DNA of 64,000 nt. Origin: Agathobacter sp. (GTDB taxonomy: Bacteria; Bacillota; Clostridia; Lachnospirales; Lachnospiraceae). Numbering within the stretch: position 1 is the first letter of the stretch; the number at the start of each line of letters is the position of its first letter. Where the stretch lies: the NCBI GenBank assembly GCA_017409825.1, contig JAFQRZ010000013.1, positions 1,503 to 65,502 on the forward strand, given 5' to 3'. Both the position numbers and the translations under genes were made by a program. Positions 33,844 through 64,000 of this stretch are shown here, piece by piece. Under the pieces are notes generated by a model. The model worked only from the letters and a program-made list of their open reading frames with translations. It searched no databases and had not been told where the DNA came from.

Positions 33844-33856
33844 TGTACGCGCCTCC

Positions 33857-34849: not shown

Positions 34850-34864
34850 AAATTCACTCCCAAA

Positions 34865-41700: not shown

Positions 41701-44700
41701 GTAGAACGCACCGTATTCAATGAATTCCAATGTGGAAGGAAGTACTACTTCTTCTAATGCAGTCAGATTTGCAAATGCATACGCACCAATCTTTTCTACA
41801 CCTTCTGGAATAATAACCTTGGTAATGGTGCCATCACCAATGAACCACTGCTTTGTCGCTTCTGCATCATCAAATGCAAGTTCTTCTGGTGTCTTCGCTA
41901 CATAATCAAAGTTTGCAAACGCAAAGTTTCCGATTTCTGTGAGTCTAAGGTCATCTGGAATCGTTACCAAACCACCAAGACCATAGTAATGTGTCAGACT
42001 TGAACCAGTCTTTACATAAGGTTCTTTTACTTCTACGGAAACATTTTCTGAGTAGTAAGTACTCTTTCCGTCCATCAACACTTTGACAGAAATGGAAGCA
42101 AAGCCTTCTTTCTGTGCCGTGATATGTCCTGTTGCATCTACCTTAACGATATTTTCGTTACTTGACTCAAATACTACTTCTGTATCATTTGGGAAGTATG
42201 CATCTAAATCGTAAGTCAAATACAAGGATTCGGATGGATACATGGTCAGTGAGTAGTTGCCTTCAAAGAAGTTCGTGCTGCCTGTATCACCGATTTTCTT
42301 ATCGTTACTATCCAGCATGTAGTATGCCTTTGTGGTATAGAAACCAGTCAAACGGAACACATCTGCTACTGGCTTGTCGTAACGTCTGTAGCCGTCATCT
42401 CCTTTTTCAAGGACGGTTACAGGGAATGTAATACTCTTATCCGTTGTAGGATCCTGAACCTTGACGATTGCGCTACCGCTTCTTACCGCTACCAATTTGT
42501 TGTTTACAACGCGAACAACGTTTGGTCTAGAAGAGCTGTATTCTAATAATTCATCCCATTCTGTAAGTGGGCTTACAATTGGGTCTAAGGAGTATACTTC
42601 ATTTGGACTAAGGGTAAGTCCTTCTGCCAAGCCTTCAAAATAGAAGTCTGTATAGTCATCTGGTAAACCGATTTCGTATGTTGCATAGTTCAACGCGTAG
42701 TCATAAACAGACAATACGAAGGAGTTACCATTCATTGCATTTTCTTTGATTTCCTGAATGTAATCGGTCAATTCGTATTTTACATACGTTGTGCCGTTAC
42801 GTTCAGAATAAATAGGTGTCATAAACTGTTCGAAGAGTTTGATTTCTGGTGTTGCATTACCATTCTCATCTTCGCCCATCATTACATAACCGAGCTGACC
42901 GGACATTGCATAATGGTTGTCATACACACCAACTTCTGCGTAAAGACGATTTTTCTTTAATGACTTGTCATACTCATAGTAATATTTTACATCGGTTACG
43001 GTCGGAGCTTCAAAGTCCATCGTAAGTGGGAACTCATACACGTTCTTTTCGTTGGTTGCTTTTCCACCATCTTTGCCGTAATCCATATAACCCTCTAAGC
43101 GAACAATGTATTCACTATTATTTGGAAGGTTGTATTCCATGGCATCAAATTCGATTTCGATATTGGCTGGATAAATCGAACCACCATCACCATAGGATTT
43201 ACGTACATCAGTATCTGTTGTCTCGAAAACAACTTCACCTGTTGTTTTATTTATAATAGAAACATCAATTCTCTGTGCGTTACGAAGGAGGCCTGCCCAT
43301 ACGTATCTAAGCGAATGAATCGTGCCATCCTGATTTGAAAGAGAAATATGTTCCATCTGAGAAGGGATATCCATATCTGCTGGATCCTGAAGGAAGTAGT
43401 AAGAACCAAGGTAGCTTACATAGTCTTCGCTTACACCACCGATTGGGCGTGTTGCATAAGCATCCGCTTTTGTCTTATCTTCTTCATCAATACCTTCATC
43501 TAATTCATCCGGATTGGTTTCATAATAGGTTAAGTCGAATAATGGAGCTTTTGTCCAATCGCCATAGAATGCAAGATAAGGAACATTCATATCTACCTTA
43601 GTACCAGATACCGCTTCTAAGGTAATGAAACCTTCTACATACATACCATTTTCAAAGGATTCATTTAAATACTTCTTATCTTCTTTGCCAAGCTTAATCT
43701 TCACTGTAACCTCTGCTGATTCTCCAGCTTTTACAGTTACTTTATTTCCACTTAACTTACCATTTTCTACTTTTACTACTTCAAAGCTAGCACCCTCTAA
43801 GATGTAAGCTTCTTCTGTAACAGTCGTTTCACCGGCGTTTGTCTTTGTCTCACTTACGCCTTCTGTAAATATATGTGCACCAAGTTCATAAGAGAGTTTT
43901 TTCTTTCCAAAGTTATTGATGGTAAATGTCATTTCGTATTTACCAGTTTTGTCTGGGTCATCACCAAGCTCAATCTTGGTTTTGTCCATTTCGTTGCCAT
44001 CGGCATCCTTTGTAGAGATGTAAGCAGTAGTTGCAAGAGCACTTGCTAAGTTAGCAAGACCTGCACCCTGTTTACGAACTGCATAAGGAGAACCATTTGT
44101 GTTCAACGCGATATCAGCAGTAGACATAAGAAGCTGATATACCAAAGCGGTTACTTTTACTTCGTCCTTTGCAATTTCAGGGAAGTTTTCTACTACATAC
44201 TGTCTTAAAAGAACTACTACACCAGCAAGGTTTGGACAAGCCATGGAAGTACCAGAAAGTCTGTCATACGTACCACCTGTTACAGCAGAAAGAATATTTC
44301 CGCCGTGCGCTGTGATTTCTGGTTTGATTCCAAGGTCTGGAGTAGGACCCCAAGATGAGAAGTCGGAAATGAAAGGACCAGAAGTCTGCTTACGTGCGAT
44401 TTCTAATGTACCTTTTTCCTTTGCTGCTAATACTTCACCATCGTCCTGTGAAATGGAACATACTGCAAGTGTTGCATCACCAACGTTCATCTTAATATCA
44501 CCGGATACATTGTTGTAAATGATGATACCAGCAGCCCCCTGCTCCTGTGCGATGATTGCTTTTTCTTCGAATGTATTAGAACCACGACGTACTAATACGA
44601 TTTTGCCTTTTACATCCAAGCCCGTGTAGTCGGCACTACGACCAACACCAGGGATAGTTACGTACTCAATCTTGATTTTGTCTTCTTCACCAAGCAATGT

Positions 44701-46294: not shown

Positions 46295-47065
46295 ATGACG
46301 AAAGAGTCCACGATGCGATTCCATCGCATTTATAACATTCTATTCAGTATCGTTATTATCATCGCCGGCATCTGCCTAATCATCGGTGTGTTGACGATAT
46401 ACAACTCAGGCGACCAGCCTTTTTCAAGAGAAAGCGTAGCCGCTACCTTCTCTACCATTGCTTTCCCAGTGTATCTGACATTGGTGATGGCGGTAATCAG
46501 CTTTATCTGGGAAATCATTTCCCCTTCTGATAAGGAAAAAACGCCAAAGGCAAAGGACTATCCTGCACTGCTCGCTAACCTTTATGAAAAGAAAGACTTT
46601 TCGAGTGGCGAACCTGCTATCCAGGAAGAAATTCATACCCTTTGGAAGAACAGAAAAATGCACACTATCATTCGTACCATTGTATTAGTGGTATGCAGCG
46701 CAGTCTTCTTATTCTATGCATTGAATAGTGCCAACTTCCACCAAAGCGAAATCAACGGTTCTATGATTCAAGCCATGAAGGTATTAGTTCCATGCTTCCT
46801 GATTGCCTTTGCGTATGCACTGTTTGTTGCAATCCATAACGAAAAAAGCATGGAAAAAGAAATGGAGCTTGTGAAGAAACTTCCAAGTGTTTCTGATGCA
46901 ACAGAAAATGAAATCATAACAGAAGAAAAACGTCTCAGTCCTTATCGCAACGCAATCCTTGTTGTAGCGATTATCCTGGTCGTTTATGGATTTTTAAATG
47001 GCGGTACGATTGATGTATTGGCAAAAGCCATCAACATCTGTACCGAATGTATTGGATTGGGGTGA
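46295..47065 (+). CDS. polytopic membrane protein with C-terminal CXXC tail
   Basis: 256 aa. At least 5 hydrophobic segments. Ends ...GGTIDVLAKAINICTECIGLG. GGAGGA RBS. 5 nt upstream of the next gene. Confidence 0.7.
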   Translation: MTKESTMRFHRIYNILFSIVIIIAGICLIIGVLTIYNSGDQPFSRESVAATFSTIAFPVYLTLVMAVISFIWEIISPSDKEKTPKAKDYPALLANLYEKKDFSSGEPAIQEEIHTLWKNRKMHTIIRTIVLVVCSAVFLFYALNSANFHQSEINGSMIQAMKVLVPCFLIAFAYALFVAIHNEKSMEKEMELVKKLPSVSDATENEIITEEKRLSPYRNAILVVAIILVVYGFLNGGTIDVLAKAINICTECIGLG

Positions 47066-47070
47066 TATAA

Positions 47071-48546
47071 ATGGGAAAATTAGTTCAAAAGATAAAAGAC
47101 CTTATGCCTAGCAAGCGCAAATGGATTCAGTTATATACCGCATTGCTCTACAATGCAAATCTGAAAGGTTTCGTACAAGGCAGTATTTACAAAGGAAACT
47201 CCAAGATACTCTGTGCGCCAGGTATCAACTGCTACTCCTGTCCTGGTGCAGTAGCAGCCTGTCCGCTCGGTTCTTTACAAGGTGCTATCAGCTCTGACAA
47301 GAGCACACTTTGGTATGTTGGTGGCATTCTCCTACTGTATTCCATTTTATTCGGAAGAATGATTTGTGGATGGCTTTGTCCATTCGGTTTCATTCAGGAG
47401 CTTGTGTACAAAATCAAAACACCAAAGATGAAAAAGAACAAAGTGACACGATTGCTTTCATATCTAAAATACGTTATTCTCGTATTCTTCGTATTTATCG
47501 TACCGATTACTTACGCATTTCGTGACACTCCTCTTCCAGCCTTCTGCAAATACATTTGTCCAGCAGGCACATTAGAAGGTGGTATGATGCTTCTCTCAAA
47601 CAAAGTAAATGCCAGCTACTTCTCCATGTTGGGACCTATTTTTACTTGGAAATTCCTCCTCATGGTAAGTATCATGGTCGGATGTGTATTCATCTTCCGT
47701 TTATTCTGCCGTTTCCTTTGTCCGCTCGGTGCACTGTATGGATTGTTCAACAAGCTATCCTTCTTCGGTGTCAAAGTGGAAGAACATAAATGCGTCAACT
47801 GTAACCTTTGTGTCAACCATTGTAAGATGGATGTCAAAAAGGTCGGCGACCAGGAATGTATCAGTTGTGGCGAATGTATCAATGTCTGCCCAACCGATGC
47901 CATCCAATGGAAAGGCTCTGGGCTTCTTCGCAAGAATCATAGCATGGATGACCATCCAGAAGAAACCAAAAAAGCTCGCAATACCACGCGCGCGATTACT
48001 ACTATCGCAATGCTGGCATTACTTATCGGTGTCATCGCTTACTACTGGCAGACCACGCCAGACTATGTACAGCCGGCGGAAGGCAACCAGGTCGGCGATA
48101 CCTGCTACAGTTACGATTTGACCCGCGTTGACGGTACTGGCATTTTAGAAGGCACCACCATCAACCCTGTCGAAACTGGCAAAATCACCATCATCAACTT
48201 CTGGGGAACCTGGTGTACACCATGTGTCAACGAATTGCCATATTTCGACCAGATTGCAACCAACTACGCAGATGACGTAACTGTCATCGCTGTTCATACT
48301 GACATGATTGCAGACACTGCACCGGCCTATATCGCAGGACATTATCCAGATTCCAACATCCTTTTCGCAAAGGATGACCCTAGCGATGGTGGAACAGCAG
48401 AAGTTTACTACTCTGCTCTTGGTGGTCGCGACACCTACCCATACACCGTAGTTCTCGACGAACACGGCGTCATCGTAAAAATCTTCTTCGAAGCATTACA
48501 TTATGAAGATTTGGAAGCGGTAGTGGAACAGGAATTGGAAAAATAA
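47071..48546 (+). CDS. NapH/NosR-like membrane polyferredoxin fused to a C-terminal TlpA-type thioredoxin domain
   Basis: 491 aa. CYSCPGAVAACP. Three CX3CP motifs (CGWLCPFG, CKYICPAG, CRFLCPLG). CVNCNLCVNHC and CISCGECINVCP. Extra TM, then INFWGTWCTPC thioredoxin fold. Confidence 0.8.
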   Translation: MGKLVQKIKDLMPSKRKWIQLYTALLYNANLKGFVQGSIYKGNSKILCAPGINCYSCPGAVAACPLGSLQGAISSDKSTLWYVGGILLLYSILFGRMICGWLCPFGFIQELVYKIKTPKMKKNKVTRLLSYLKYVILVFFVFIVPITYAFRDTPLPAFCKYICPAGTLEGGMMLLSNKVNASYFSMLGPIFTWKFLLMVSIMVGCVFIFRLFCRFLCPLGALYGLFNKLSFFGVKVEEHKCVNCNLCVNHCKMDVKKVGDQECISCGECINVCPTDAIQWKGSGLLRKNHSMDDHPEETKKARNTTRAITTIAMLALLIGVIAYYWQTTPDYVQPAEGNQVGDTCYSYDLTRVDGTGILEGTTINPVETGKITIINFWGTWCTPCVNELPYFDQIATNYADDVTVIAVHTDMIADTAPAYIAGHYPDSNILFAKDDPSDGGTAEVYYSALGGRDTYPYTVVLDEHGVIVKIFFEALHYEDLEAVVEQELEK

Positions 48547-50326: not shown

Positions 50327-53300
50327 TTAGAATTCTTTTTTTCTCATAACAACGCTACCAGCGATTGCAGCTGCACCAAGTGCAAGAACTGCGAACCAAA
50401 GAGCGAAGTTTGTTGAATCACCTGTCTGAGGAACATCAACGTCAACTTTTTCTGTTAAAAGAACGTAGTCTGAGCAGTGTTCCTGAGTAACACTTACTTT
50501 ACCATCAACTACTTTTGCATCACAGATGTATTTCAATGTACCATCTGCTAAAATCTGATGATAGTATAATGTTTCAATCTTCTTTTCAATGATTGATGCT
50601 GGAACTTCAATTGTAATAGCTGCTTTTCCAGGAAGCTTACCTTCATGTGAGAATTCTACTTTTAATACGAAGTTCTTGTCAGTAATCTTATCGTTCTTAG
50701 CTACTGTTTCGTCTTTTACATCTTCTACAACGTTTACAGTTAAGTTGAGTTCGATTTCATCGTTTTCTTTTAATTCGTTTGGATCGAATGTCATTGTAAC
50801 TTTATCACTTGTCGTAGGAAGTTCAAGTGGAGCTTCATCCTTGATAGCCTGTTCGATGTGTTCGTCTAAGTATTCTTTGTCAACTACTACATCTTTACCT
50901 TCTTCTGGAGTTGGAAGTGGAACAACAACTGTGTTGTCTGCTTCTTCATCTTCTGTTCCAGGAACATAGTAGCAAGCGAACATCCAAGCATCATCTTCTG
51001 TGAATCCAAGGAATCCATCTTCACCATACCAGCCAGCATAAGCACCAGCATTCTTTAAGATGGTTACTAAATCTGTTGTTAATGGATATAAACCATCTTT
51101 GTTTGCTGCTGCAACATATTCTAATACTGCATCATTGTAGTTAATCTTTGCAATGATTTCGCCATCTTCTGTGATGTATTCAACAATCTTTCCTAAACCA
51201 GCTGCATCTGCTAATGACATAATGCTATCATTTAAATCTACATAAAGGATAGGGCCATTTGCAGAATTTAAGTGGTAGAAACCATCTTTACCAAGAACAG
51301 CTGTATCAACTTCTGTATCTTCTACATCTACATATTCAAGACCTTCTAAAACAGTTTCGAATTTTTCTGGTGTTACAGTATTTTCATAAACTGTCCATTC
51401 TACTTCTTCTTTCACTTCTGCTGCTTTGTATGAAACAGTTACATCAACTTTTGTTGTTCCTTCAGCAGCAGTTAAACCTACTAAGAATGTCTGACCTACA
51501 GAAGTGCATTCAATACTTACTGTATTTGTAGCATTTTCTGTAATCTTGTTAGGGAATGATGGAGTATTCCAATTTTCTACCTTAACTCCTGTTGGAGCAG
51601 TAATTGTGTATGTACCTACTTTGTCAGGTGTTAATTCGAAAAGAGTTGTAACAACTGTAGTATCTAATGTAACTGAGCCTGTTACAATTGCTTCATATTT
51701 TCCAGCATCATTTGCATTTGTTGCTGGTTTTGTAGTTGGTTTTTCTTCTTCTTTTTCAGCACCTTCTTCAAATGTTGCTGTAAAATCAACGGTAGTGCTT
51801 GAGTAAGCCTTCACAACAATAACGTCACCTTTCTTAACTGCAGTAACATTTGTTGTTTTGTTTGTACCACGCTCTAATGGTTCACCATTCAATTCGTATG
51901 CATATACATTTTTGAAATTATCTGCATCTTCTTCACTAATTACAAGTGTTAACACACCATCAGCTGTAGCTGTGAATGTGTAGTAAATATTGTCATAATT
52001 ACATGTTGCTGTATATTTACCATTTGTAGTAATTTCAAATGGTTTTTCATAAGTTCCATCTGGAGCATTCGTTGAGCCACCTTCTCCACCTTCTGTTGTT
52101 GCTGGAGCTAATGAAACTCTATAATTCTGACTTGATTCTGTGTTATTTACAGCTACAAAATTAATTGTACTACTAGTTCTTGGAGAAACAACTTTTACCT
52201 TTGCTGTACCATTTGTATCTGCTGTTTCAATCATATTTGGATTCAAATCTTCATAAGTTCCAACTACAAAACCTGTAGCACCAACTACTGTCAAATCATA
52301 TTCGCCTGGAGTAGCTAAAACTGAGAAGTAATATGTTGCACCAGGAGCAACTGTAATAGTAGAAGCTGTACCATTAGTTGCAAGTGTAGTATTTGGTGCA
52401 TCCTCTGTACCAACTACTGGTGTTGGATCTGGATTAGGTGTTGTACCTGTACCAGTTCCTGATGTGAAAGCAAATGTCCAATTTACAGTACCTGCATACT
52501 GAGTATATGGATCCTCTGCATTATATGTGTTAATTTCAATATTAACAATTTCACCTGCTGCTACCGAAATACTTGTTGAAGCATTAATAGTTTCATCTCC
52601 AGAAGTATAACGTTCACCATAATTTCCAGCATCATAGTTGGCTACTAAATAATTCCAACCTGTTGTATTATTTTCTGTGTCCATTGTTACAGTCACAGTT
52701 CCGGCCTGAGTAGCTGTCCACTGATAATAATATCCTGTCTGTCCAGTAACAATTTCAGCTGTATTTTCACCAACTACTGGAGTTTCCTGAGAACCATAGG
52801 TTCCTGTTGCAACAGCATGAGCAAAATCAAGTTCAATTGCTGCATCCGAAGAGTTAATAATTGAATAACTATATTCAGGCTGACTAAAATATACCTTTAA
52901 AGCACCATTTACAGCAGAAAGATCAACGCCTGGATCCCACCACTGACCATTACCTGCAACATAGAATCTAAATGCATCAGTTGTCTCTCCAGTTACGTTA
53001 AGGATATATTCTCCTTCAAGTGCTGGTTTGCTTACGAAATACATTGTTGCACCTGCAGGAATCGTCTGCGTAACTTCTGATTCAACAACCACTGGATTTA
53101 ATTCTGTACCTACCGCCGGAGCGTCAATTGTTTCTGTTGTAATTTTATATGTAACAACTTCACCTTCTGGAGCATAAACCTGAACATAAACAGTCTGGTC
53201 TGGAGCAACATCTAAAGTCATTGATGAAGCATTTGCAGTCTCAGAAGAATAGTAATCCTGTCCTAAATACACTTCCCAATTTTCGCCCGTTTCAATTGTT

Positions 53301-54478
53301 ACTGTTACTCGAGTCCAATCTGTTGTGATAATTTCTGTATTATCTGGTGTATAAGAATTCTTAGCCTCAAATCCCTTAGAATCAGCAACACCATCTGCCG
53401 CAACAAAACCAAGCGTCCAGTTAACTGTACCTTCAACCATCGGTTGTGGCCAGCTCATTGAATTCTGATCAAAAGCTGTGCCAATCATAATATCCACAAC
53501 GTCTCCGGCACTTACAGTAAATGTTTCTGTTGCAACTATCTCATCATCATCACTCGTATGCTCATCACCATATTTAGATGCAGCAATATTATCTACTCTA
53601 TACAGCCAAGCATCTGTTTTTGTTGTATCAATAGCAACTGTAACCGTTCCTGCCTCTGGAGCAACCCATTGATAGTAATATCCTGAATATGCAGAATCAA
53701 TCTCTACTGTATTTTCACCAACATCTGGTGTATCAGGATAATTAGTGGTCGCACCAACAACACTATCAATAGTAAAGTTAAGCACAACATCGTTGGCTCC
53801 TGTATTAATTACTTGATACGAATAAGATGGATTATATTCGGTATCGATTGAAAAAATAGGACTCTTCAATGTTGCATCTACCGCATTAATTTCAGTAGCA
53901 GGATTCATCATTCCACTTCCTGGAATATAGAATTTGAAGCTATCTGACGCAGCACCACCTTCAATAGTTAATCTGTAGTCACCATTTGAATATGGCATAG
54001 TCTTAAAATACATTGTTGCACCAGCATCAATTGTAACTTCTTGATCCCAACTAACTTCCTTTGGGTTTAACTCAGACCCCTCTGCTGGAGCCTCAATTGT
54101 TTCTGTTGTAATACTGTATGTAACAGTTCCATTCTCAGCACCTACATACATCTGTACATATACTTCAGAATCTGGTGCTACATCATAAGTCTGTGTCGTT
54201 GCATCACTCGCAGAACTTGAATACTGAACACTACTCTGTCCTTGATTAATACAAAAATCCCAACCATCACTAGCACTTTCGATTGTAACTGTAATACGTG
54301 TCCAATCTGTTGTGGTAATTTCAGTATTATCTGGCGACCATGTATTCTCTGCTGTATATTCTTTTGAATCCACAACAGTTGTAACACCATCTTCAGCAAA
54401 TACTGTCATTGGTAAAAGTGATGCTACCATCATTACTACTAATGCTAAGCTCATCACTTTTTTCATGATTTTTTTCAT
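50327..54478 (-). CDS. sortase-anchored cell-wall surface protein with duplicated beta-sandwich modules
   Basis: 1383 aa. Signal peptide MKKIMKKVMSLALVVMMVASLLPMTVFA. C-terminal VPQTG (50420-50434) plus hydrophobic stretch plus RKKEF sorting signal. Confidence 0.85.
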   Translation of the reverse strand: MKKIMKKVMSLALVVMMVASLLPMTVFAEDGVTTVVDSKEYTAENTWSPDNTEITTTDWTRITVTIESASDGWDFCINQGQSSVQYSSSASDATTQTYDVAPDSEVYVQMYVGAENGTVTYSITTETIEAPAEGSELNPKEVSWDQEVTIDAGATMYFKTMPYSNGDYRLTIEGGAASDSFKFYIPGSGMMNPATEINAVDATLKSPIFSIDTEYNPSYSYQVINTGANDVVLNFTIDSVVGATTNYPDTPDVGENTVEIDSAYSGYYYQWVAPEAGTVTVAIDTTKTDAWLYRVDNIAASKYGDEHTSDDDEIVATETFTVSAGDVVDIMIGTAFDQNSMSWPQPMVEGTVNWTLGFVAADGVADSKGFEAKNSYTPDNTEIITTDWTRVTVTIETGENWEVYLGQDYYSSETANASSMTLDVAPDQTVYVQVYAPEGEVVTYKITTETIDAPAVGTELNPVVVESEVTQTIPAGATMYFVSKPALEGEYILNVTGETTDAFRFYVAGNGQWWDPGVDLSAVNGALKVYFSQPEYSYSIINSSDAAIELDFAHAVATGTYGSQETPVVGENTAEIVTGQTGYYYQWTATQAGTVTVTMDTENNTTGWNYLVANYDAGNYGERYTSGDETINASTSISVAAGEIVNIEINTYNAEDPYTQYAGTVNWTFAFTSGTGTGTTPNPDPTPVVGTEDAPNTTLATNGTASTITVAPGATYYFSVLATPGEYDLTVVGATGFVVGTYEDLNPNMIETADTNGTAKVKVVSPRTSSTINFVAVNNTESSQNYRVSLAPATTEGGEGGSTNAPDGTYEKPFEITTNGKYTATCNYDNIYYTFTATADGVLTLVISEEDADNFKNVYAYELNGEPLERGTNKTTNVTAVKKGDVIVVKAYSSTTVDFTATFEEGAEKEEEKPTTKPATNANDAGKYEAIVTGSVTLDTTVVTTLFELTPDKVGTYTITAPTGVKVENWNTPSFPNKITENATNTVSIECTSVGQTFLVGLTAAEGTTKVDVTVSYKAAEVKEEVEWTVYENTVTPEKFETVLEGLEYVDVEDTEVDTAVLGKDGFYHLNSANGPILYVDLNDSIMSLADAAGLGKIVEYITEDGEIIAKINYNDAVLEYVAAANKDGLYPLTTDLVTILKNAGAYAGWYGEDGFLGFTEDDAWMFACYYVPGTEDEEADNTVVVPLPTPEEGKDVVVDKEYLDEHIEQAIKDEAPLELPTTSDKVTMTFDPNELKENDEIELNLTVNVVEDVKDETVAKNDKITDKNFVLKVEFSHEGKLPGKAAITIEVPASIIEKKIETLYYHQILADGTLKYICDAKVVDGKVSVTQEHCSDYVLLTEKVDVDVPQTGDSTNFALWFAVLALGAAAIAGSVVMRKKEF
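52457..54370. repeat. tandem duplication of an approximately 310-330-aa coding module
   Basis: Residues 37-365 (53384-54370) and 366-674 (52457-53383) align end to end (e.g. PDNTEI(T/I)TTDWTR(I/V)TVTIE, GYYYQW, GTVNWT). Divergent at DNA level. Confidence 0.85.
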
Positions 54479-55725: not shown

Positions 55726-56601
55726 ATGGATAACTCAACAACAACTCAAATACCACATCAAGCAGAGGATGCCGCGCTCAAAGTCATGCATGATTATTTT
55801 GCTGAGGTCTTACTTCCCTATTGGAATATCCCTGGGATAGTTGACCACGTCGCACCGACGGAAAGCATATATTTGGAACTCCGCAAGCAATACCAAGACA
55901 TCAATATTCACATGAAAGATGGCACCTTGATTCACTTCGAATTTCAAAGTTCTGACAATAGAGCTTTGGACGATCTAAGACGATTTCGCACGTATGAAGC
56001 ATTTCTCTGTATGAAGCACAAAACTGATGTGCACACTTATGTTCTTTTTTCTGGCGGAATTGAACATCCCATGACAGAATTCACCAGTGGTATTAATACC
56101 TATCGTATACATCCCATCATTATGAAAGGACAACTCGCTGAAGATATCTTTGAAAACATCAATAGCAAACTAGAACAAAACATTCCATTAACAGAACAGG
56201 ATTTGGTTCCTCTAACCATTTGTCCGCTTATGGGCGGCGACATCCCTCAAAAAGAACGTTTTCAAAAAGCCTTTAAAATTGTCCGTATGGCTGGTGAATC
56301 AATCCAAAGTCTCAGTGTTATCGAAGCAGTACTCTATACTATGGCAACCAAGTTTTTAAGTCAAGAAGAATTAAATAGTCTAAAGGAGGAAATCAAAATG
56401 ACAGAACTCGGAGCAATCATTTACAACGATGGCATCTCTGAAGGCATTTCACAAGGCATTTCACAAAATGCCATCGAAAATGCACGTAACTTATTTATAA
56501 ATGGAGTATCTTTTGAAATAGTCTGCAATTCCATCACCGGCATCTCAAAACAAGATTTGAAAGAAATCTATGAAGAAATAACAGCAAAGAAAATAGTCTA
56601 A
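55726..56601 (+). CDS. Rpn-family (YhgA-like) recombination-promoting nuclease / putative transposase
   Basis: QDINIHMKDGTLIHFEFQS core. ATG 55726 with an AAAGGA RBS is preferred over the track TTG 55705. Confidence 0.7.
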   Translation: MDNSTTTQIPHQAEDAALKVMHDYFAEVLLPYWNIPGIVDHVAPTESIYLELRKQYQDINIHMKDGTLIHFEFQSSDNRALDDLRRFRTYEAFLCMKHKTDVHTYVLFSGGIEHPMTEFTSGINTYRIHPIIMKGQLAEDIFENINSKLEQNIPLTEQDLVPLTICPLMGGDIPQKERFQKAFKIVRMAGESIQSLSVIEAVLYTMATKFLSQEELNSLKEEIKMTELGAIIYNDGISEGISQGISQNAIENARNLFINGVSFEIVCNSITGISKQDLKEIYEEITAKKIV

Positions 56602-56603
56602 AA

Positions 56604-56639
56604 AAATCCCCTACCCAACTTTAGTTGGATAGGGGATTT
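56604..56639. terminator. bidirectional terminator between convergent genes
   Basis: Stem aaatcccctacccaact / agttggataggggattt (one mismatch). A-run upstream, T/A-rich downstream. Confidence 0.75.
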
Positions 56640-56657: not shown

Positions 56658-57710
56658 TTACTTATACACACTTTCCCAAGTGATATCCGTTGCTGGATAT
56701 TTTCCGCGTCGGTTTGGAATTGCAGAAACATGAATCATAATACTATCACCTTGTGACACTTCCAACTCAATGTACTGCCTTCCTTGCTCATCGGTCAGTC
56801 CGTCTGCTTCAAATGTTCTGGTCGCAGAATTACGATTGTTTGTTACAGTCATCTCAGAATCAACTGTTGCACTAAGATAAAAACGAAGCTTTCCTGTTTT
56901 CTCTGCAGTATATTTATAATAATATCCCGTTTCTTTTCCCTCTGCCAAACTCTTCTTATACTGTCCAATTTTGGCTATTACTTCAGGATTCTGGCGACTT
57001 CCATACGCATTGCTGAATTTCAAAGTAAATGCTTTTGCAGAACCACCTTTGTTTCCTATCTGCAGGGTCACATAATCGCTTGCCAATGCATTCTCCACTG
57101 TAATGGATACTTTTCCATTTTTGGCATCGTATCTCGTTCCATTAGAAGTAATAATATATGCATCTGCATCTTCGATTGTAAGAATCAACCCACCAATTCT
57201 CTGAATACTATAGTATAATGCTTTTCCAGATGGAATGCTTACTGTCTGTACTTTCATGTTGTTATCTGGAATTTCAACATAAGGCTGTTTCTTACTACCT
57301 TCACCGAGAATTTCTTCTTCGTTTTTGTTTCCGTCATTCCCGTTGCTATTGTTATTATCGTTGTTATTCGTTGAACCACCAGACACCTCTGTATCTTCTT
57401 CCGTCTCGGTTTCCACCTCAACTTCCGTTCCCATTTCGGTTTCTATCTCTGTTTCAAGCTCTGTACCGATTTCGGTTTCTATCTCAGAGTCTTCTTCTGT
57501 TCCTGGAACAAGTGATTCACTCTGTTCTACTGTGTCAGACTGGGAATCCATCTCTGTTCTCCCTTGCGAAGATCCCTCATCTTCTTTCTTATCACTGCTA
57601 CCACCAACGATTAATGCGATAACTAAGATAAGTACTACCGCACATACGATACCACCACCGATAAGAATCTTCTTATCAAGGTTTTTGATTTTCTCTAACA
57701 ATTCTTTCAT
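56658..57710 (-). CDS. membrane-anchored exported protein: acidic low-complexity linker plus double beta-sandwich (PPC-like) domain
   Basis: 350 aa. N-terminal TM ILIGGGIVCAVVLILVIALIVGG. ETEIGTELETEIETEMGTEVEVETETEE linker. The C-terminal 219 aa are paralogous to the next gene. Confidence 0.7.
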   Translation of the reverse strand: MKELLEKIKNLDKKILIGGGIVCAVVLILVIALIVGGSSDKKEDEGSSQGRTEMDSQSDTVEQSESLVPGTEEDSEIETEIGTELETEIETEMGTEVEVETETEEDTEVSGGSTNNNDNNNSNGNDGNKNEEEILGEGSKKQPYVEIPDNNMKVQTVSIPSGKALYYSIQRIGGLILTIEDADAYIITSNGTRYDAKNGKVSITVENALASDYVTLQIGNKGGSAKAFTLKFSNAYGSRQNPEVIAKIGQYKKSLAEGKETGYYYKYTAEKTGKLRFYLSATVDSEMTVTNNRNSATRTFEADGLTDEQGRQYIELEVSQGDSIMIHVSAIPNRRGKYPATDITWESVYK

Positions 57711-57721
57711 CCTATCTCACC

Positions 57722-58807
57722 TTAAAATTTCATTTCCCATGTAACATCTGTAGCAGGATATTTGAATCTCTTGGTTGGCATTGCATGTACCTGGATGATA
57801 ATTTCATCACCAGAGTTTACCTCCAACTCGATATAGCTCTTTCCTGCTCCATCTGTTTTTACATCTCCATCAAAATTTCTCTGAGCTGAATTTCTATTAT
57901 TCGTTACTGTAATTCCACTATCCACTGATGCAGAATTGATGTAGAAACGAAGTGTTCCTGTCTGCTGAGCATAGTATTTATAATAATGTCCTGCTGCGTT
58001 TCCTTCTTCTACATGCACACTGTATGAACCTGTAGCATTAAGTTTCGTTGGATTCATTTGAGAACCTTCTGCATTGGTAAATTTAAGTGTAAATGCCTTC
58101 GCACTCGAACCACTATTTCCAATCTGAATTACGATATCCTCACTTGCCATCGCAGCCTCTAACTGGAAGTACACCTTTCCACCACTCGCATTATGTCTAG
58201 TACCATCTGATTCAATAATATAAGCGTTTGCATCGTTAATTGTCACATACATACCACCAACACGCTGAATGGAATAATATAATGTTTTGCCTGCTGGAAC
58301 ACTTTCTGTAGTAAGTGTCATCGTATCAAGGTTTGGAATCTCTTTATATGGATCATTCTCGCTTCCTTTTCCAAGAATTTCCTGCTCTTCTGATTCTACT
58401 TCAGATGAACCTGGTGTTTCTGAAGAGCCTGGTTTCTGTGAAGAACTTGGCTGCTGTGAAGAGCTTGGCTGTTGTGAGGAACTTGGCTGCTGTGAAGAGC
58501 TTGGTTTCTGGCTTTCACTTTCTTTCTCAGATTCCTTTTCGCTTTCTTTTTCAGACTCCTTCTGGCTCTCAGACTCTGATTCTGTCACTTCTGTTTCTGT
58601 ATTTTTCTCTGTTTCAATCTCTGTATTAAACACTTCTGACGAACCTGCTTCGGTTCCAGACTGTGTATCATTCTGATTTTCAGACTGATTTTCGCTCTGT
58701 GAATTGTTTGTATTGCCACCAGATGGCTTATCGCCATTCTTGCCACATGCGCAAAGGCAAACTGCCAAACAAAGCACAAAAGCTGCTACTAAAAATTTCT
58801 TTTTCAT
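57722..58807 (-). CDS. lipoprotein paralogue of the previous gene with SSSQQP / KESE repeat linker
   Basis: 361 aa. Lipobox VCLCACG. C-terminal domain shares LYYSIQR(I/V)GG, SAKAFTLKF, TVTNNRNSA and KYPATD(I/V)TW with the 350-aa protein. Confidence 0.75.
   Translation of the reverse strand: MKKKFLVAAFVLCLAVCLCACGKNGDKPSGGNTNNSQSENQSENQNDTQSGTEAGSSEVFNTEIETEKNTETEVTESESESQKESEKESEKESEKESESQKPSSSQQPSSSQQPSSSQQPSSSQKPGSSETPGSSEVESEEQEILGKGSENDPYKEIPNLDTMTLTTESVPAGKTLYYSIQRVGGMYVTINDANAYIIESDGTRHNASGGKVYFQLEAAMASEDIVIQIGNSGSSAKAFTLKFTNAEGSQMNPTKLNATGSYSVHVEEGNAAGHYYKYYAQQTGTLRFYINSASVDSGITVTNNRNSAQRNFDGDVKTDGAGKSYIELEVNSGDEIIIQVHAMPTKRFKYPATDVTWEMKF
58397..58570. repeat. in-frame 18-bp (PSSSQQ-type, x6) and 12-bp (KESE) tandem repeats
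   Basis: 18-bp units from 58397 to 58504 (ctgctgtgaagagcttgg and variants), then KESE-coding 12-bp units to about 58570. Confidence 0.85.
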
Positions 58808-58839
58808 TTATAACACTTCCTTACTAAAAAACTACTTTC

Positions 58840-59253
58840 CTACTCTGCCATTGTAAGAGTAAGTTCTGTTGCACCTGCTTCGAAATATACGTATGCATCT
58901 TCACCTGCAGTTAATAATTTTGCTTTGTATTCATTAGATTCTTCCAAACGGAAGGTAGCTACACCATTCGCATCTGTTGCTACTGGAGCAAAACAGTTTT
59001 CTGCATTACAAACCTGAATCATCTGGCCTGCTACTGGGTTGCCATTTGCATCTAATAATGTTACTTTGTATTCGATTTTGCCATCGTCTACGTTTTCAGA
59101 TTCACTTTCTTTTTCTGTATCTTTGTTTGCTTCGCTGTTAGCTTCTGTGTTCTGCTTACCAGTATCTTCTGTGTTACCAGCATTTCCGCCACATGCACAA
59201 AGGCTAAGTGCCACGCAAAGCATAAGTACTACTGTTACGATTTTCTTTTTCAT
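58840..59253 (-). CDS. small lipoprotein with single Ig/prealbumin-like domain
   Basis: 137 aa. Lipobox LSLCACGG. YKVTLLDANGNPVAGQMIQVCNAENCFAPVATDANGVATF. Confidence 0.65.
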   Translation of the reverse strand: MKKKIVTVVLMLCVALSLCACGGNAGNTEDTGKQNTEANSEANKDTEKESESENVDDGKIEYKVTLLDANGNPVAGQMIQVCNAENCFAPVATDANGVATFRLEESNEYKAKLLTAGEDAYVYFEAGATELTLTMAE

Positions 59254-59283
59254 GAGTAATCTCCTTTCATTTCCTACTTTGTT

Positions 59284-59910
59284 TTATTCGATATCGCTAA
59301 TATTGCGGATTACCGTCTGTTCATAGTCCTCAGCAGTGAAGAAATGGAACAATTTATTAAACTCTTTTACATCCGTAATCATTCCAGTATGTTTAAAACT
59401 TACAATTCCGTAACGGTCGATCACGATTGTCGTTGGATATGCCTGAAGTTCCATGCGCTGTGCCCATTCTTCATCACATACTGCCATTGGGAAGGTCAGC
59501 TCGAACTTCTTCTGGAATTCTGCTACGGTTTCATCTGTACCATCATAAGGATTCACCGCGATAATTTCAATTGCATCTTTGTAATTCTCATACGCGTCCT
59601 GCATATATGGGAACTCCATCTGACATGGGCCGCAATTTATATACCAGAAATTAAGAACAACCGCCTTCTTTTCTTTCAAAATCTCAGAAATCTTGTAGGT
59701 CTTACCTTCTGGTGTAGTCACAGACATATCTGCAAATACATCTCCTCGTTTGAATGTCACACCTTCTAATTCATTTTCCGAAAGAAGCTGCAGTTCGGAT
59801 TCCTGTTCGGTATCATTTCCTGCATGATTTCCACACGCAACGAAGGTTCCCATTACGAGAACCATCGTTGCGAAACATATTATTAATTTTTTAACTGTTA
59901 ACTGTTTCAT
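59284..59910 (-). CDS. TlpA-family thiol-disulfide oxidoreductase lipoprotein
   Basis: 208 aa. Lipobox TFVACG. VVLNFWYINCGPCQMEFP thioredoxin active site (CGPC). Confidence 0.85.
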   Translation of the reverse strand: MKQLTVKKLIICFATMVLVMGTFVACGNHAGNDTEQESELQLLSENELEGVTFKRGDVFADMSVTTPEGKTYKISEILKEKKAVVLNFWYINCGPCQMEFPYMQDAYENYKDAIEIIAVNPYDGTDETVAEFQKKFELTFPMAVCDEEWAQRMELQAYPTTIVIDRYGIVSFKHTGMITDVKEFNKLFHFFTAEDYEQTVIRNISDIE

Positions 59911-59927
59911 AGAAATACCTTTCTATC

Positions 59928-61154
59928 TTACTGTACGTAAGCACACATAAATAACCAAGCGTTTTCTACATTAAGTCCCGGAATTGGATTGCCAGCTGTA
60001 TCTTTGAAGATAAAGCCTGGATTTGAGCTATCCCACCAGCCTACATATTCGCCTCTTTCCTGGATGATTGTTTTCAAATCTTCGGTAAGAGGATATACAC
60101 CTGTATTGTCATCTACGTATTCAATGTATTCTAAGAGACATTCGCTGTAGCTTACTTTTTCTACAAAGTTGCCATCTTCGTCAAATTCATATTTTGAAAT
60201 ACCAGAACGTTCCAAAATCGTTGCGAAACATGGTAAGTATGGCTCTGTTGGATCTTCTGCCAAGTAAACAACTACCAATGGACCATTTTCATTGTTTAAG
60301 TGATAGAATCCATCTTCTTTGTTTAATACAAGCTTGTATTCTGTCGTAGAGAAGATGTCGAAATCTACTAAATTCTTACCAGCTGGCATTGTGTATTTGG
60401 AAAGTTCAACTGTTTTTTCGTAGATTGTCCATTCTTCATCCGCCAACGTTTTCTGTGGATCACCAATACGGTTGATGCAAAGAACTGCGTTTGTTTTCTT
60501 ATCAGAATCCACACCAACAACTGCAACCGTTGTACCTGTATTGCCTGTGCCAATCATGCTTTCGCTGATGGACATTGTAAATTTGCCATCTTTAACTTCT
60601 GCTGCACTATTTTCCTGTACGAAATGTGGTGCACCATAGTAGCCGATTTCTGTTTTGCTTTCTGCAACAACAGAAAATTCATACGTACCAGCCTGTGTAG
60701 GAACGAAAAGGAAATAGCTTCTCTTTCCTTCTGCAAGCTCTACGTTTGTACAACCTGCATTTACATAGTAGGCATCTGTTTCTTCACCACTTACAAAAAG
60801 GATTTCTGGTTCTTCCCCTAATTTGTTAGAGACGATTACTTCTGCTGTTGTTTTACTTCCTGTTACCTGTGTTTCTTCGAAATAATAAGAAACCTCTTTG
60901 TCTATAGATGTTACCTTGAGTGTGTATGTGCCTTTTGCTAATTTCTTTGTAGCGACACCGTTTTCATCACAAATCTGTACACCTACTTTTTCGTCACCAT
61001 CGTAGAATTCTACCATAGTGTCTTTACCATACGTGTTGCCGAGTGCATCTTTTACCGTTACCTTATATTCTGCTTCTCCGCCACCACATGCAACGAGTAA
61101 CATTGCGCTGCACATAAGTGCAGCCACAATGATAAGTTTTTTCAAATTCTTCAT
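59928..61154 (-). CDS. lipoprotein: Ig-like N-domain, beta-sandwich, C-terminal DGFYH...AWLFMCAYV module
   Basis: 408 aa. Lipobox LLVACGG. YKVTVKDALGN...DENGVATKKL. The C-terminal 169 aa are shared with the 1383-aa and 921+-aa proteins. Confidence 0.7.
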   Translation of the reverse strand: MKNLKKLIIVAALMCSAMLLVACGGGEAEYKVTVKDALGNTYGKDTMVEFYDGDEKVGVQICDENGVATKKLAKGTYTLKVTSIDKEVSYYFEETQVTGSKTTAEVIVSNKLGEEPEILFVSGEETDAYYVNAGCTNVELAEGKRSYFLFVPTQAGTYEFSVVAESKTEIGYYGAPHFVQENSAAEVKDGKFTMSISESMIGTGNTGTTVAVVGVDSDKKTNAVLCINRIGDPQKTLADEEWTIYEKTVELSKYTMPAGKNLVDFDIFSTTEYKLVLNKEDGFYHLNNENGPLVVVYLAEDPTEPYLPCFATILERSGISKYEFDEDGNFVEKVSYSECLLEYIEYVDDNTGVYPLTEDLKTIIQERGEYVGWWDSSNPGFIFKDTAGNPIPGLNVENAWLFMCAYVQ

Positions 61155-61182
61155 GATATTACTCCTTTTCTAAGCAAACCAA

Positions 61183-64000
61183 TTAGTTCGCTGGTCCAAG
61201 ATAATCATAGTAATAGCAGAGTTTTGTCCATGCATGGTCTACATTTTCAAATGTATACTTATTCATTACTAACTGGAGGATTTCTGCTAATTCTTCTGTT
61301 ACAACTACACAGCCGTTACGTTCTGCACTGCCAGTTTCAACCTTGCTGCAGTAAGCACGAATTGCTTCTGTATAATCTTCTCCGTCACCATGGTATTTGC
61401 CAGCATAAACATCTTTTAACTGATATTCTTCTGCATAACCATCGTAATCTTCACCCCAAAGTTCTTTGAGGTACTTGTCAGCAGCTTCTACACTACCCTG
61501 TGCTTCAATCACAGAAAGCACATACATATCGTTTTCTGACTTACTGAAGTCGAAGCCGCCCATATCAATCATACCTTTCACGCCCTGGTTGGTCATAATC
61601 GGATTACTGAAAATACCTGTGATACCTGTAAAGTCACAGTAGAGCTTGCTGCCCTTCTTGCCATTGCCTAAATCTTCGTAGTAAATTCCGTCATCGCCAA
61701 GAACTACATCAATACCACCAGCGATTACATAGTACATAGCGTCGCCTGTTGCGTTGCTATCGTAAGTGAAGTAACCAGGTGATGCCAATCTAAAGTGGTT
61801 GTAGGTTGGAGCAATGTATTCGATCGTGTAGTTAATTGTACCTTCTTCGTAAACATCCCAGAATGCGATGTCAATGTAGTAAGGTGTACCAGCTTCCATG
61901 TAGAATACCATAGAAACTTCGCCTTCTTCCTGGAACATTCTTTCATCTGGCTCGTATACAAGAAGTTCTTTACGATCAGCACTGAAAATCCAAGCATCTA
62001 CGCCCTGTTCAGAGTCGTTCTGTGAAGTGATACGATATACACCAGACTGACTTGGAATAAATTCTGCCATCATACCTCTTGGAAGGATTGCTCTATTATA
62101 GTAGAAATAGTTCCCACTTCCGAGGTGTGCTTTGTATGCAGAGAATGTCGCAAGACCTTTAATTGGGTCTTCCACATGAACCTCTGAACCATAAGCATCG
62201 TAATATTTACAAATCTTTAACCATTCGTTTTCATCGTCTTCAAAACCATATTTTTCAGCAAATGCCTGTAAAAGCTCTGCTAATTCTTTTGTAACAGTAC
62301 ATACACCGGATATGGATGCATTTGAAGCATAGTTTGCATACTGTTCTAATTCTTCATAGCGATCTACACCATCTACTTCGAATTTACCATCCTCCTGAAT
62401 GAGTCCGTATACATGATTTTCTTCATTGAACTGTGTATAGTTTAATAATTCAGCTAAAAGAAGTGGACCATTTGCAGTGCCTACATGATAGTAGCCATCT
62501 GCTGGATTATATACGACATCTGCATAAGTATAAGAACCATCTTCCTGTTCTACTGCAGGATATCTAGGAATCTGTACCGTTGTATTTTTATCAATCGCAC
62601 TTGCGTCAACTACACGTAAGTTCTTGATAAATGCTGTATCATCACCTTCGTTTGTATCTTCATCCTTTAAGAAGCAAAGTGCAAGTTCATAAGTACCATC
62701 TTCTACAGCTACCCATGGGTAACATGTTGTCCATGAAGGATTTTCGCTTGCCCCTGAAATCTGGTAAATATCCTCATCATTTACGATTACAATAAGTGCA
62801 TCATTTAAATATTCACTAGATACGATGTAATCAAATGCAATTGCCTGACCTGCTTTCAATTCGATGTCTGCATAGATAATTGCATAAGAATCTTCGATTC
62901 CCTTGTTGGAAGCATAGATACATTTATCTCCATTCTTTTCACCAAGAACGAATGGCCATGTAAATTCTGCTGCATCGCCTTCTTCTGGACGGTAGGTGAT
63001 ACCTTCTGTACCATTGATAGCAGCTTCAATATCTTCTGATTTTGGCATTTCTACTGTAGGTTTAATCTGAGCTACCAAATCACCGATACCATTTACACAA
63101 AGCTTCTGTTCATAATCCTTTGCTGTAAAGTGATCAAATGCAGAAATAAATGGTCTAAGGCTGGTAATCGCACCAGATTCCACACAACAAATTACACCAT
63201 ACTGGTCGATGAGTACTGAGGTTGGATAACCCTGAATACTAAATACATTTGACCATGAGGTAGGACATTCAGCCATAATGAATGGTAAATTGTTATTTGT
63301 CTGGAATGCCTTCACTGCGTCAGCACCTTCGTTCATTGGGTCAAGAGCAAGGATTTCGACATCATCCTTATATTTGTTATAAGCTTCTGCCATAACAGGG
63401 AACTCTTTTACACACCATGAACAGTTGGTGTACCAGAAGTTCAACATAACCATTTTCTTTTCTTCTAAAAGCTTAGAAAGCTGAACCTTTTCACCGTCTG
63501 GAGTTGTGATTGTAAAGTCATACATTACATCACCTAAACCAAGCTGTGCTGTAGAGATGTCATCACCTGTAATAAGAGAAGATGTAAGTACGATTTTGGC
63601 TTTTTTGCCATCGAACTCATAGTAATCTTCTACTTCATATCCCTTTGGTGCACCATCGATTTCGATGTAGTAATTGTCACTTTCAGGAAGCTCGAGCTCT
63701 ACTGTACCATCTTCTTCTAATTCAGCAGCATCTGCCAAATCTGTTAATTTCTTGTCATTATATACACGAACGTCGATATCAGAGAGAATCATACCTCCCT
63801 TTGTCTTAACGCTTACGGTGTATGTAGTTTTCTTGCCGGAACCTGTACCTGTGTTTCCGCCACCACCTTGTGAACCACTACCGCTAAGTCCTACAACCAA
63901 TGCAACGATTAACGCTACAACAGCTACAGCACCAACGATAAGAGCCACGAGGAATTTTTTGTCTGTCTTAGCACGTTCTACAATTACATTAAATTTTTCT
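61183..64000 (-). CDS. large anchored exported protein: TM, Ig-like unit, TlpA-type thioredoxin (CSWC), beta-sandwiches, two DGxYx...AWxKxCYYYD modules (5' end outside window)
   Basis: The track starts at GTG 63948, but the frame stays open to 64000 (...EKFNVIVERAKTDKKFLVALIVGAV), so the N-terminus is off-window. FWYTNCSWCVKEFP at 63412-63423. Confidence 0.8.
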   Translation of the reverse strand, partial: EKFNVIVERAKTDKKFLVALIVGAVAVVALIVALVVGLSGSGSQGGGGNTGTGSGKKTTYTVSVKTKGGMILSDIDVRVYNDKKLTDLADAAELEEDGTVELELPESDNYYIEIDGAPKGYEVEDYYEFDGKKAKIVLTSSLITGDDISTAQLGLGDVMYDFTITTPDGEKVQLSKLLEEKKMVMLNFWYTNCSWCVKEFPVMAEAYNKYKDDVEILALDPMNEGADAVKAFQTNNNLPFIMAECPTSWSNVFSIQGYPTSVLIDQYGVICCVESGAITSLRPFISAFDHFTAKDYEQKLCVNGIGDLVAQIKPTVEMPKSEDIEAAINGTEGITYRPEEGDAAEFTWPFVLGEKNGDKCIYASNKGIEDSYAIIYADIELKAGQAIAFDYIVSSEYLNDALIVIVNDEDIYQISGASENPSWTTCYPWVAVEDGTYELALCFLKDEDTNEGDDTAFIKNLRVVDASAIDKNTTVQIPRYPAVEQEDGSYTYADVVYNPADGYYHVGTANGPLLLAELLNYTQFNEENHVYGLIQEDGKFEVDGVDRYEELEQYANYASNASISGVCTVTKELAELLQAFAEKYGFEDDENEWLKICKYYDAYGSEVHVEDPIKGLATFSAYKAHLGSGNYFYYNRAILPRGMMAEFIPSQSGVYRITSQNDSEQGVDAWIFSADRKELLVYEPDERMFQEEGEVSMVFYMEAGTPYYIDIAFWDVYEEGTINYTIEYIAPTYNHFRLASPGYFTYDSNATGDAMYYVIAGGIDVVLGDDGIYYEDLGNGKKGSKLYCDFTGITGIFSNPIMTNQGVKGMIDMGGFDFSKSENDMYVLSVIEAQGSVEAADKYLKELWGEDYDGYAEEYQLKDVYAGKYHGDGEDYTEAIRAYCSKVETGSAERNGCVVVTEELAEILQLVMNKYTFENVDHAWTKLCYYYDYLGPAN

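Follow-up and report, generated by a model that had tools for sequence, protein, structure and literature searches.

We analysed a window of 64,000 nucleotides (the whole stretch presented here, on contig JAFQRZ010000013.1) from a metagenome-assembled genome (MAG) of Agathobacter sp., a member of the Lachnospiraceae, and studied a set of six minus-strand genes that reaches its last nucleotide. These genes encode exported proteins, two of them with a thioredoxin domain, and a preliminary description of this DNA had taken them for an uncharacterised mosaic family of surface proteins that co-evolves with dedicated extracytoplasmic thiol reductases. We found that the gene set recurs in many other Clostridia and that, as genome comparison shows, it belongs to a larger conserved neighbourhood together with an S8 protease, an Opp-type importer, a polyferredoxin-thioredoxin and a CD1871A-family protein (Table 1). 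The reading that we favour, which we regard as plausible though short of probable, is that reductases on the cell surface break the disulfides of disulfide-rich proteins, which can then be degraded and taken up.

The six open reading frames (ORFs) are separated by gaps of 28, 17, 30, 32 and 11 nt, and a Shine-Dalgarno-like site precedes the start codon of every one of them. The operon is closed by an intrinsic terminator, a 16-bp hairpin with a U-run directly 3′ of the 350-aa gene, and a promoter-like TTGACT-17-TAGTAT with TG is found upstream of the first gene, with 77 nt between the end of the -10 hexamer and the start codon. Because of the short gaps, the ribosome-binding site of each gene, the single strong terminator and the promoter-like site, the six genes are best read as one transcription unit. 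Longer metagenome contigs of the same organism, which carry an identical 408-aa protein, give 950 aa as the full product of the gene that the window truncates. Upstream of it on these contigs we found a 700-nt intergenic region and then a chemotaxis receptor gene. This intergenic region (L001:6423-6988, just past the window end) consists almost wholly of one nested inverted repeat, with outer arms of 40 nt that are 95% complementary and inner arms of 88, 63 and 28 nt. Rfam gave only sub-threshold long-hairpin matches to the palindrome, and no copy of it occurs inside the window.

Reading of the N-termini revealed the lipoboxes LVAC (408-aa protein), FVAC (208) and LCAC (137 and 361), and an N-terminal transmembrane (TM) anchor in the 350- and 950-aa proteins; in most orthologues of the 950-aa protein a lipobox takes the place of the anchor. 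On these signals, the thioredoxin proteins are predicted to sit outside the cytoplasmic membrane. The preliminary description was accurate in both respects, having reported six minus-strand ORFs lying 11-32 nt apart and a lipobox or TM anchor on all six products.

Table 1. Position of the operon genes, the terminator and the neighbouring genes in the window
Feature	Position	Strand	Remark
950-type gene, first of the operon, runs past the window end	61183..64000	-	
408-aa lipoprotein: Ig-like unit, beta-rich middle, C-terminal DGFYH module	59928..61154	-	
208-aa lipoprotein: stand-alone ResA/TlpA-type thioredoxin (CGPC, cis-Pro YPT)	59284..59910	-	
137-aa lipoprotein: acidic linker and one Ig-like (Big_1/CarboxypepD_reg-like) unit	58840..59253	-	
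361-aa lipoprotein: long acidic Ser/Glu/Gln linker and bipartite beta-rich module	57722..58807	-	
350-aa TM-anchored paralogue of the 361-aa protein, same bipartite module	56658..57710	-	
Intrinsic terminator closing the six-gene operon	56600..56639	-	dG -28.6 kcal/mol, z -6.6
1383-aa wall protein, VPQTG sortase-type anchor; two 350-type bipartite modules and one DGFYH module	50327..54478	-	
491-aa NapH-like membrane polyferredoxin-thioredoxin	47071..48546	+	Fer4_5 2e-16
256-aa CD1871A-family membrane protein	46295..47065	+	
2433-aa S8 subtilase, cell-envelope-protease type: S8, PA, fn3_5, Big_2, BspA-type LRR_5 repeats, C-terminal TM anchor	38767..46068	-	
443-aa lipoprotein (p443)	37458..38789	-	
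Opp-type ABC importer: 858-aa SBP_bac_5 lipoprotein, two permeases, two ATPases	30639..37441	-	

Conservation of the gene set across Clostridia

At E ≤ 0.001 we found 1026 relatives of the 950-aa protein; the best 120 of these align full length and cover at least 92% of the query. Those that carry a name are called either 'redoxin domain-containing protein' or 'TlpA family protein disulfide reductase'. Full-length identity across families ranges from 55 to 89%, and the domain architecture is intact in 20 diverse orthologues that are 58-87% identical to the query. The preliminary description had regarded this protein as part of a shuffled mosaic; its full-length conservation across families instead reveals a rigid architecture.

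A scan with one genome per species placed relatives of the 950-aa protein in 421 stretches. The best 80 of the 421 all come from uncultured MAGs and, where the titles name a host, from ruminant and deer hindguts. The taxa with such relatives include Agathobacter, Lachnobacterium, Roseburia, Faecalimonas, Oscillospiraceae, Acutalibacteraceae, Faecousia, Fimenecus and Ruminococcus.

Furthermore, the order of the genes is conserved and runs from the 950-type gene through the 408-type, thioredoxin and Ig genes to the 350-type gene. Counting only loci with enough flanking DNA, we found a 408-type gene directly downstream of the 950-type gene in 68/76 loci, and further downstream genes for a separate thioredoxin (72/75), a 137-type Ig protein (53/59) and a 350-type module (49/59); modules like those of the 1383-aa wall protein also lie downstream of the operon in most loci. 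The synteny in other Clostridia expected from the preliminary description is thus present. Some genomes contain two copies of the 950-aa family (L070 and L088 on contig JAZSHO010000011.1; L048 and L087 in one MAG), and the usual downstream partners are absent beside one of the two copies (L070 and L087).

Thioredoxin domains and the modules around them

The 208-aa protein and the 950-aa protein (residues ~150-300) both match Pfam AhpC-TSA/Redoxin above the gathering score (5.8e-18 and 3.9e-12, respectively). Their domains, with CGPC in the former and CSWC in the latter (window positions 63106-63534), are 40% identical over 168 aa (E 1e-43) up to a common FTA(E/K)DYEQ end; these scores, positions and identities confirm the two paralogous thioredoxins that the preliminary description had recognised. 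C205/C208 and the GYPT (cis-Pro) motif are invariant in the 20 diverse 950-type orthologues. Across 82 loci the CxxC is retained in 96/96 950-type and 62/63 208-type thioredoxin ORFs (158/159 together), and the cysteines on which the idea of dedicated thiol reductases depends are therefore kept in nearly all cases.

The best NCBIfam models for both domains are ResA, StoA, DsbE and TlpA, all under the curated cutoffs. ResA is the top match in NCBIfam (3e-26) as well as in the PDB (3e-20); on the NCBIfam model the two domains reach 92.3 and 74.7 bits against an equivalog cutoff of 170. Going by these matches, both thioredoxins are likely members of the TlpA/ResA/DsbE class of extracytoplasmic thiol:disulfide oxidoreductases, and family resemblance suggests that they act in the reducing direction.

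ResA and StoA of Bacillus subtilis and TlpA of Bradyrhizobium are membrane-anchored thiol:disulfide reductases fed by CcdA/DsbD; ResA serves apocytochrome c, StoA spore-cortex proteins and TlpA Sco/CoxB. The proteins described here belong to the same thioredoxin subfamily and share the CxxC, the cis-Pro and the membrane anchor on the outer face. They differ in scoring under the family cutoffs (92 vs 170 bits), in having neither partners for cytochrome c maturation, sporulation or Sco/Cox nor a CcdA gene nearby, and in that one of the domains lies inside a 950-aa multidomain protein, with a protease, an importer and a polyferredoxin as partners. No Res or Ccs genes were found near the operon. 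Roles in cytochrome c maturation, in sporulation, at copper sites or with Msr were rejected because the partner genes are absent from the neighbourhood.

Surface thioredoxins of Streptococcus pneumoniae are also among the PDB matches (4hqz, 2yp6 and 4hqs, ~1e-10). This bears on whether the operon could defend the cell surface against oxidative stress, as Etrx1/Etrx2-CcdA-MsrAB2 does in the pneumococcus, with thioredoxins feeding a repair enzyme. The two systems have in common that their thioredoxins are lipoproteins of a Gram-positive surface. However, neither the window nor the inspected loci contain a gene for a methionine sulfoxide reductase or CcdA. The operon also differs from the pneumococcal system in gene context and in the modules fused to the thioredoxin, and what is conserved beside it is a protease, an importer and binding modules. 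We give such a defence role the slimmest of chances.

Next to the thioredoxin, the 950-aa protein contains several other modules, arranged as TM anchor, Ig-like unit, thioredoxin, jelly-roll beta-sandwich, first DGYYH module, PPC/collagen-binding-like sandwich and second DGYYH module. The Ig-like unit is present in the 137-, 408- and 950-aa proteins, as the preliminary description had stated, and the units of the 137- and 408-aa proteins are related at E 4e-7. Pfam supports it only under its thresholds, the Big_1 match of the 137-aa protein reaching 7.9e-7 and 29.5 bits against a cutoff of 34.9.

The bipartite modules of the 350- and 361-aa proteins are 58% identical over 215 aa, and each half aligns with the repeat of the 1383-aa protein (hhalign 99.6% and 98.8%). 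While this supports the homology of the three modules that the preliminary description had proposed, its label 'PPC-like' was not confirmed: Pfam gave no PPC match in them at E ≤ 0.1, and hhalign placed the probability of a match between the 350/361 module and the PPC-like sandwich of the 950-aa protein below 1%. A kinship of this module with the beta-sandwiches of the 950-aa protein was likewise dropped, as no relation was detectable.

The beta-sandwiches of the 950-aa protein were examined in an AlphaFold2 model of residues 312-950 (predicted local distance difference test, pLDDT, 86), which shows the jelly-roll sandwich, DGYYH 1, the second sandwich and DGYYH 2 with a helical insert. With the whole multidomain model Foldseek found only generic beta-sandwich matches of low global template-modelling score. 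The sandwiches themselves match carbohydrate-binding-type jelly rolls, ColG collagen-binding domains and collagenase PPC. In the predicted structure the second sandwich superposes on the s3a/s3b-type PPC/collagen-binding domains of ColG, with 1.4e-7 in Foldseek for the collagen-binding domain 5iku, and a template-modelling score of 0.71 and a root-mean-square deviation of 3.1 Å over 109 columns for the collagenase PPC 5sv5; it is the only sandwich to show the PPC/collagen-binding fold. It differs from the ColG domains in giving no Pfam PPC match at the sequence level, and in being attached to a reductase and not to a protease.

The DGFYH module is homologous in the 408-, 1383- and 950-aa proteins, with two copies in the last (E 5e-23 and 4e-6; hhalign 98%), in line with the recurrence noted in the preliminary description. 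Asp, Tyr, His, Gly-Pro, Trp, Cys and Tyr are invariant across its three subtypes, the Cys (in a W...C.YY motif) being universal in all module types. Pfam has no family for it, and a search of ten modules at E ≤ 1 gave noise only. An isolated DGYYH module is modelled with a pLDDT of 90 and a predicted template-modelling score of 0.84, and Foldseek found no PDB counterpart for it (best E 0.66). When the PDB was searched by sequence with the 950-aa profile, the 408-aa protein, the 350 module, the 1383-aa protein and the polyferredoxin, all matches were to thioredoxins or ferredoxins. The view that the non-thioredoxin modules match no characterised family thus holds for Pfam, NCBIfam and PDB sequences and, in the case of the DGYYH module, for Foldseek.

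The invariant residues of the DGFYH module would also suit an enzyme, for instance a thiol-dependent hydrolase whose catalytic Cys is kept reduced by the thioredoxins and which would add a second hydrolytic activity to that of the S8 protease. The module is tightly fused or adjacent to thioredoxins, and a confident model that has no PDB counterpart does not contradict catalysis. We nevertheless consider this improbable: neither Foldseek nor Pfam showed similarity to a known hydrolase fold or family, and its presence twice in one protein, and again in a wall protein, is easier to reconcile with binding repeats.

An exhaustive search with a 408-type DGFYH profile gave 1093 cluster representatives among 1.84 billion proteins; a word-indexed search with the module profile had given only 60 short unnamed fragments. 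Among the best 148 of the 1093, a TlpA-like thioredoxin lies at residues ~132-189 in 42 of the 44 proteins of at least 850 aa and in none of the 61 proteins shorter than 500 aa. Pfam analysis of eight long matches showed the order Ig, Redoxin, Ig repeats and module in seven of them. What is encoded here by separate neighbours (208, 137 and 408) is thus a single polypeptide elsewhere, and such gene fusions are a classical sign of functional coupling. The claim of uncharacterised surface proteins that co-evolve with dedicated thiol reductases stands, as none of the three refuting conditions named in the preliminary description came true, and it is made stronger by the 42 fusions among 44 long DGFYH proteins.

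A fusion of thioredoxin and DGFYH module is equally what one would expect if the one acts on the other. In the 950-aa family each DGYYH module has an invariant Cys pair (C579/C609 and C909/C940), and the thioredoxins could serve to keep or isomerise the machine's own cysteines, namely these pairs, the free Cys of the 408- and 1383-type modules and those of the S8 protease, as a dedicated redox quality control. To our knowledge, every characterised close relative (ResA, StoA, TlpA and Etrx) acts on endogenous proteins. On the other hand, the mature 350- and 361-aa proteins are conserved members of the operon and have no Cys at all, the 408/1383-type modules are without the second Cys of the pair, and the Cys content of the protease is an ordinary 0.74%; two or three thioredoxins and binding-type sandwiches seem excessive for so few cysteines. 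This self-maintenance is unlikely in our judgement, although it is the main rival of the reading that we favour.

Protease, importer and polyferredoxin genes near the operon

The preliminary description delimited the six-gene set correctly but not the full system, as it left out a conserved neighbourhood at 30.6-48.5 kb. Here the gene of a surface protease with S8, PA and fn3_5 domains is encoded beside an oligopeptide importer, and the two are kept together in other genomes. The p443 gene lies between the S8 protease gene and the gene of the substrate-binding protein in every locus inspected, and its product has no family match in Pfam or NCBIfam. The 858-aa binding protein (34865-37441, -) is unusually long, with its main SBP_bac_5 match at residues 445-752, in two stretches, and with its first ~440 residues largely without a domain match.

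Lactic-acid bacteria couple a cell-envelope protease to Opp. The lactococcal PrtP and Opp resemble the present genes in that a giant S8-PA-fn3_5 protease stands beside an Opp-type importer, so that proteins are cut outside and the peptides imported. They have no redox component, whereas here the protease gene regularly has thioredoxin lipoproteins and the polyferredoxin-thioredoxin encoded next to it, in some genomes within one operon.

Several comparisons tie the reductase operon to these genes. Distant relatives have three further genes behind the reductase cluster, always in one order and orientation: the polyferredoxin-thioredoxin gene, a gene for a ~255-aa membrane protein and one for a ~2400-aa S8-PA-fn3_5-LRR_5 protease. 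Within 10-kb flanks the polyferredoxin-thioredoxin was found in 25/52, the CD1871A protein in 18/52 and the S8 protease in 22/52 loci, which are lower bounds limited by the length of the flanks. In the loci L053 and L083, read ORF by ORF, the 950-type, thioredoxin, Ig, S8 and p443 genes are co-directional with gaps of 10-150 nt, and a tblastn map gave the same gene order in L073 and L077. Looking outward from three polyferredoxin-thioredoxin homologues, we found the substrate-binding protein, p443 and S8 genes on one side in 3/3 and the reductase operon on the other in 2/3.

In the window itself, PDDEXK_2 transposase-like genes and the gene of the 1383-aa wall protein separate the two halves of the neighbourhood. 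The transposase-like genes lie, together with unclassified ORFs, at 49047-50276 (+), 54910-55395 (-) and 55705-56601 (+), and a 409-aa protein of this set has tandem QEIEEKT repeats at its end. The polyferredoxin, wall-protein and operon blocks are contiguous in many relatives.

A candidate electron supply for the surface reductases, as judged from its motifs, is the polyferredoxin-thioredoxin. The 491-aa protein has four predicted TM helices, an N-terminal C-x5-C-x2-C-x6-C, three CX3CP and two 4Fe-4S motifs, and its final TM helix leads into a WCTPC thioredoxin. All 20 motif cysteines are invariant in 26 homologues. The positive-inside rule suggests that the thioredoxin, one CX3CP and probably the N-terminal cluster lie outside, with the ferredoxin motifs inside. 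The family comprises at least 7987 clusters, with '4Fe-4S binding protein' as its sole name; some homologues are ~660 aa long and have two thioredoxin domains (P0130, P0143 and similar; L092:10001-11995). Pfam scans of ORFs from the window and of the genes called in the inspected loci gave no match of DsbD/CcdA type.

Polyferredoxins of the NapH/NosR/CcoG type pass electrons to extracytoplasmic redox enzymes. The 491-aa protein has the Fer4_5 membrane domain, the CX3CP motifs and the two 4Fe-4S motifs of the NapH/NosR type. It differs in a third CX3CP, the N-terminal Cys cluster, an extra TM helix leading to an external thioredoxin and a CD1871A partner; it also scores 77 bits, under the NapH equivalog cutoff of 213, and the window holds no Nap or Nos genes.

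This CD1871A partner, the 256-aa protein, has five predicted TM helices and passes the CD1871A model NF040920 (40.3 bits against a cutoff of 32). Its gene ends 5 nt upstream of the polyferredoxin-thioredoxin gene, and this position directly upstream is always found. In 22 homologues the C-terminal tail NICTECIGLG, for which an outward orientation is predicted, does not vary, and the last 17 residues (DVLAKAINICTECIGLG) are nearly invariant. No literature on the CD1871A CXXC family was found, and the family has no known function.

A polyferredoxin of NapH/NosR type with all cluster ligands invariant and joined to an external thioredoxin, from a fusion family that is very large in gut Clostridia, would also suit an extracellular electron sink. 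Fermentation electrons would then be dumped on external disulfides (cystine, oxidised thiols or mucin) for redox balance, and the adjacency of the protease would reflect a shared surface location only. Yet the co-directional arrays with S8 and Opp and the domains of protein-binding type point to protein substrates, and no quinone- or energy-coupling component is nearby. We hold such a sink to be very unlikely.

Possible function and other features of the window

From strong comparative evidence we infer a function for which the substrate, the reducing direction, the electron path across the membrane and the cooperation with the protease would be as follows. The operon would be the reductive arm of a larger surface machine that feeds on proteins. 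Its non-catalytic modules would hold a disulfide-cross-linked protein substrate and its thioredoxin domains would reduce the disulfides, upon which the ~2400-aa S8 cell-envelope protease could cut the opened chain and the Opp-type transporter import the resulting peptides. Cytoplasmic reducing power would reach them by way of the NapH-like polyferredoxin with its external thioredoxin at the end, which would probably work with the CD1871A-type CxxC protein and fill the place of CcdA/DsbD.

Two levels of this proposal should be kept apart. The opening of substrates by surface reductases carries the confidence given at the outset. The complete 'reductive proteolysis' machine, in which the polyferredoxin-thioredoxin and the CD1871A protein replace CcdA/DsbD and charge the thioredoxin fusions, and in which the beta-sandwiches and the DGFYH modules, with their presumably new fold, capture disulfide-rich dietary or host proteins for S8 and Opp, is a tentative extension that we consider rather doubtful.

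A precedent for the order of events comes from keratin, on which, according to a review, S8 keratinases can act only after disulfide reduction (PMC7775373). Likewise, in pairs of a keratinolytic reductase and an S8 keratinase, disulfide reduction exposes cross-linked proteins to subtilases (PMC7775373). Keratin degraders differ in that they usually rely on sulfite, cellular thiols or a soluble reductase for this step, and not on genetically linked surface thioredoxin fusions.

Several points weigh against the proposal that the operon serves protein degradation. The redox direction is taken from family resemblance alone. The gut lumen is already reducing, and because of this the need for enzymatic reduction is not obvious. 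With at least 7987 clusters, the polyferredoxin-thioredoxin family greatly exceeds the 950-aa family with its roughly 1000 members; it is therefore a general device that is not dedicated to the operon. Its FeS motifs are predicted to be cytoplasmic, and electrons would need a way across the membrane. Furthermore, C579/C609 and C909/C940 of the 950-aa protein could be the real targets of the thioredoxins, and the DGFYH module, in which Asp, His and Cys do not vary, might serve catalysis instead of binding. Finally, the protease, Opp and polyferredoxin block and the reductase operon are separable, because locus L091 has this block without an adjacent reductase operon.

We found no published description or curated family for this combination of genes, in agreement with the preliminary statement that no characterised system has this composition. 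Searches for NapH-thioredoxin fusions, for TlpA with a cell-envelope protease, for polyferredoxin with CcdA and for TlpA/S8/Opp in Lachnospiraceae yielded no relevant literature, and a clostridial Dsb paper makes no mention of reducing pathways. The preliminary interpretation is partly supported and takes three corrections: the 950-aa protein is no mosaic, the neighbourhood is larger than described, and redox chemistry on a captured ligand is a suggestion that may or may not apply. What sets this system apart from known extracytoplasmic thiol reductases is its new partners, what is probably a new source of electrons, and a domain whose fold matches none that is known.

The established role of extracytoplasmic thioredoxins is to mature or repair proteins of the cell itself. 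If the proposal is true, thioredoxins would here be hard-wired to a nutritional protease and a peptide importer and fed by an FeS protein instead of CcdA/DsbD, in a system carried by several hundred uncultured hindgut species. It would amount to a new step in the anaerobic digestion of recalcitrant disulfide-cross-linked proteins, with plant storage and defence proteins, protease inhibitors, mucins and immunoglobulins as possible substrates, and to a new route for reducing power across the Gram-positive membrane. It would also give a first function to the 950-aa 'redoxin domain-containing protein', to the polyferredoxin-thioredoxin '4Fe-4S binding protein' and to CD1871A, and would define a domain without a solved fold, DGFYH.

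Other parts of the window hold a second S8 subtilase of 579 aa (6941-8680, -), whose context is unrelated to the large cell-envelope protease. A set of genes resembling type IV pilus or type II secretion systems lies at 9327-18744 (-), with PilM, an A24 prepilin peptidase, T2SSF, two T2SSE ATPases and an N_methyl pilin. After this pilus-like set lies the gene of a 2039-aa protein with a GLUG motif (18766-24885, -).

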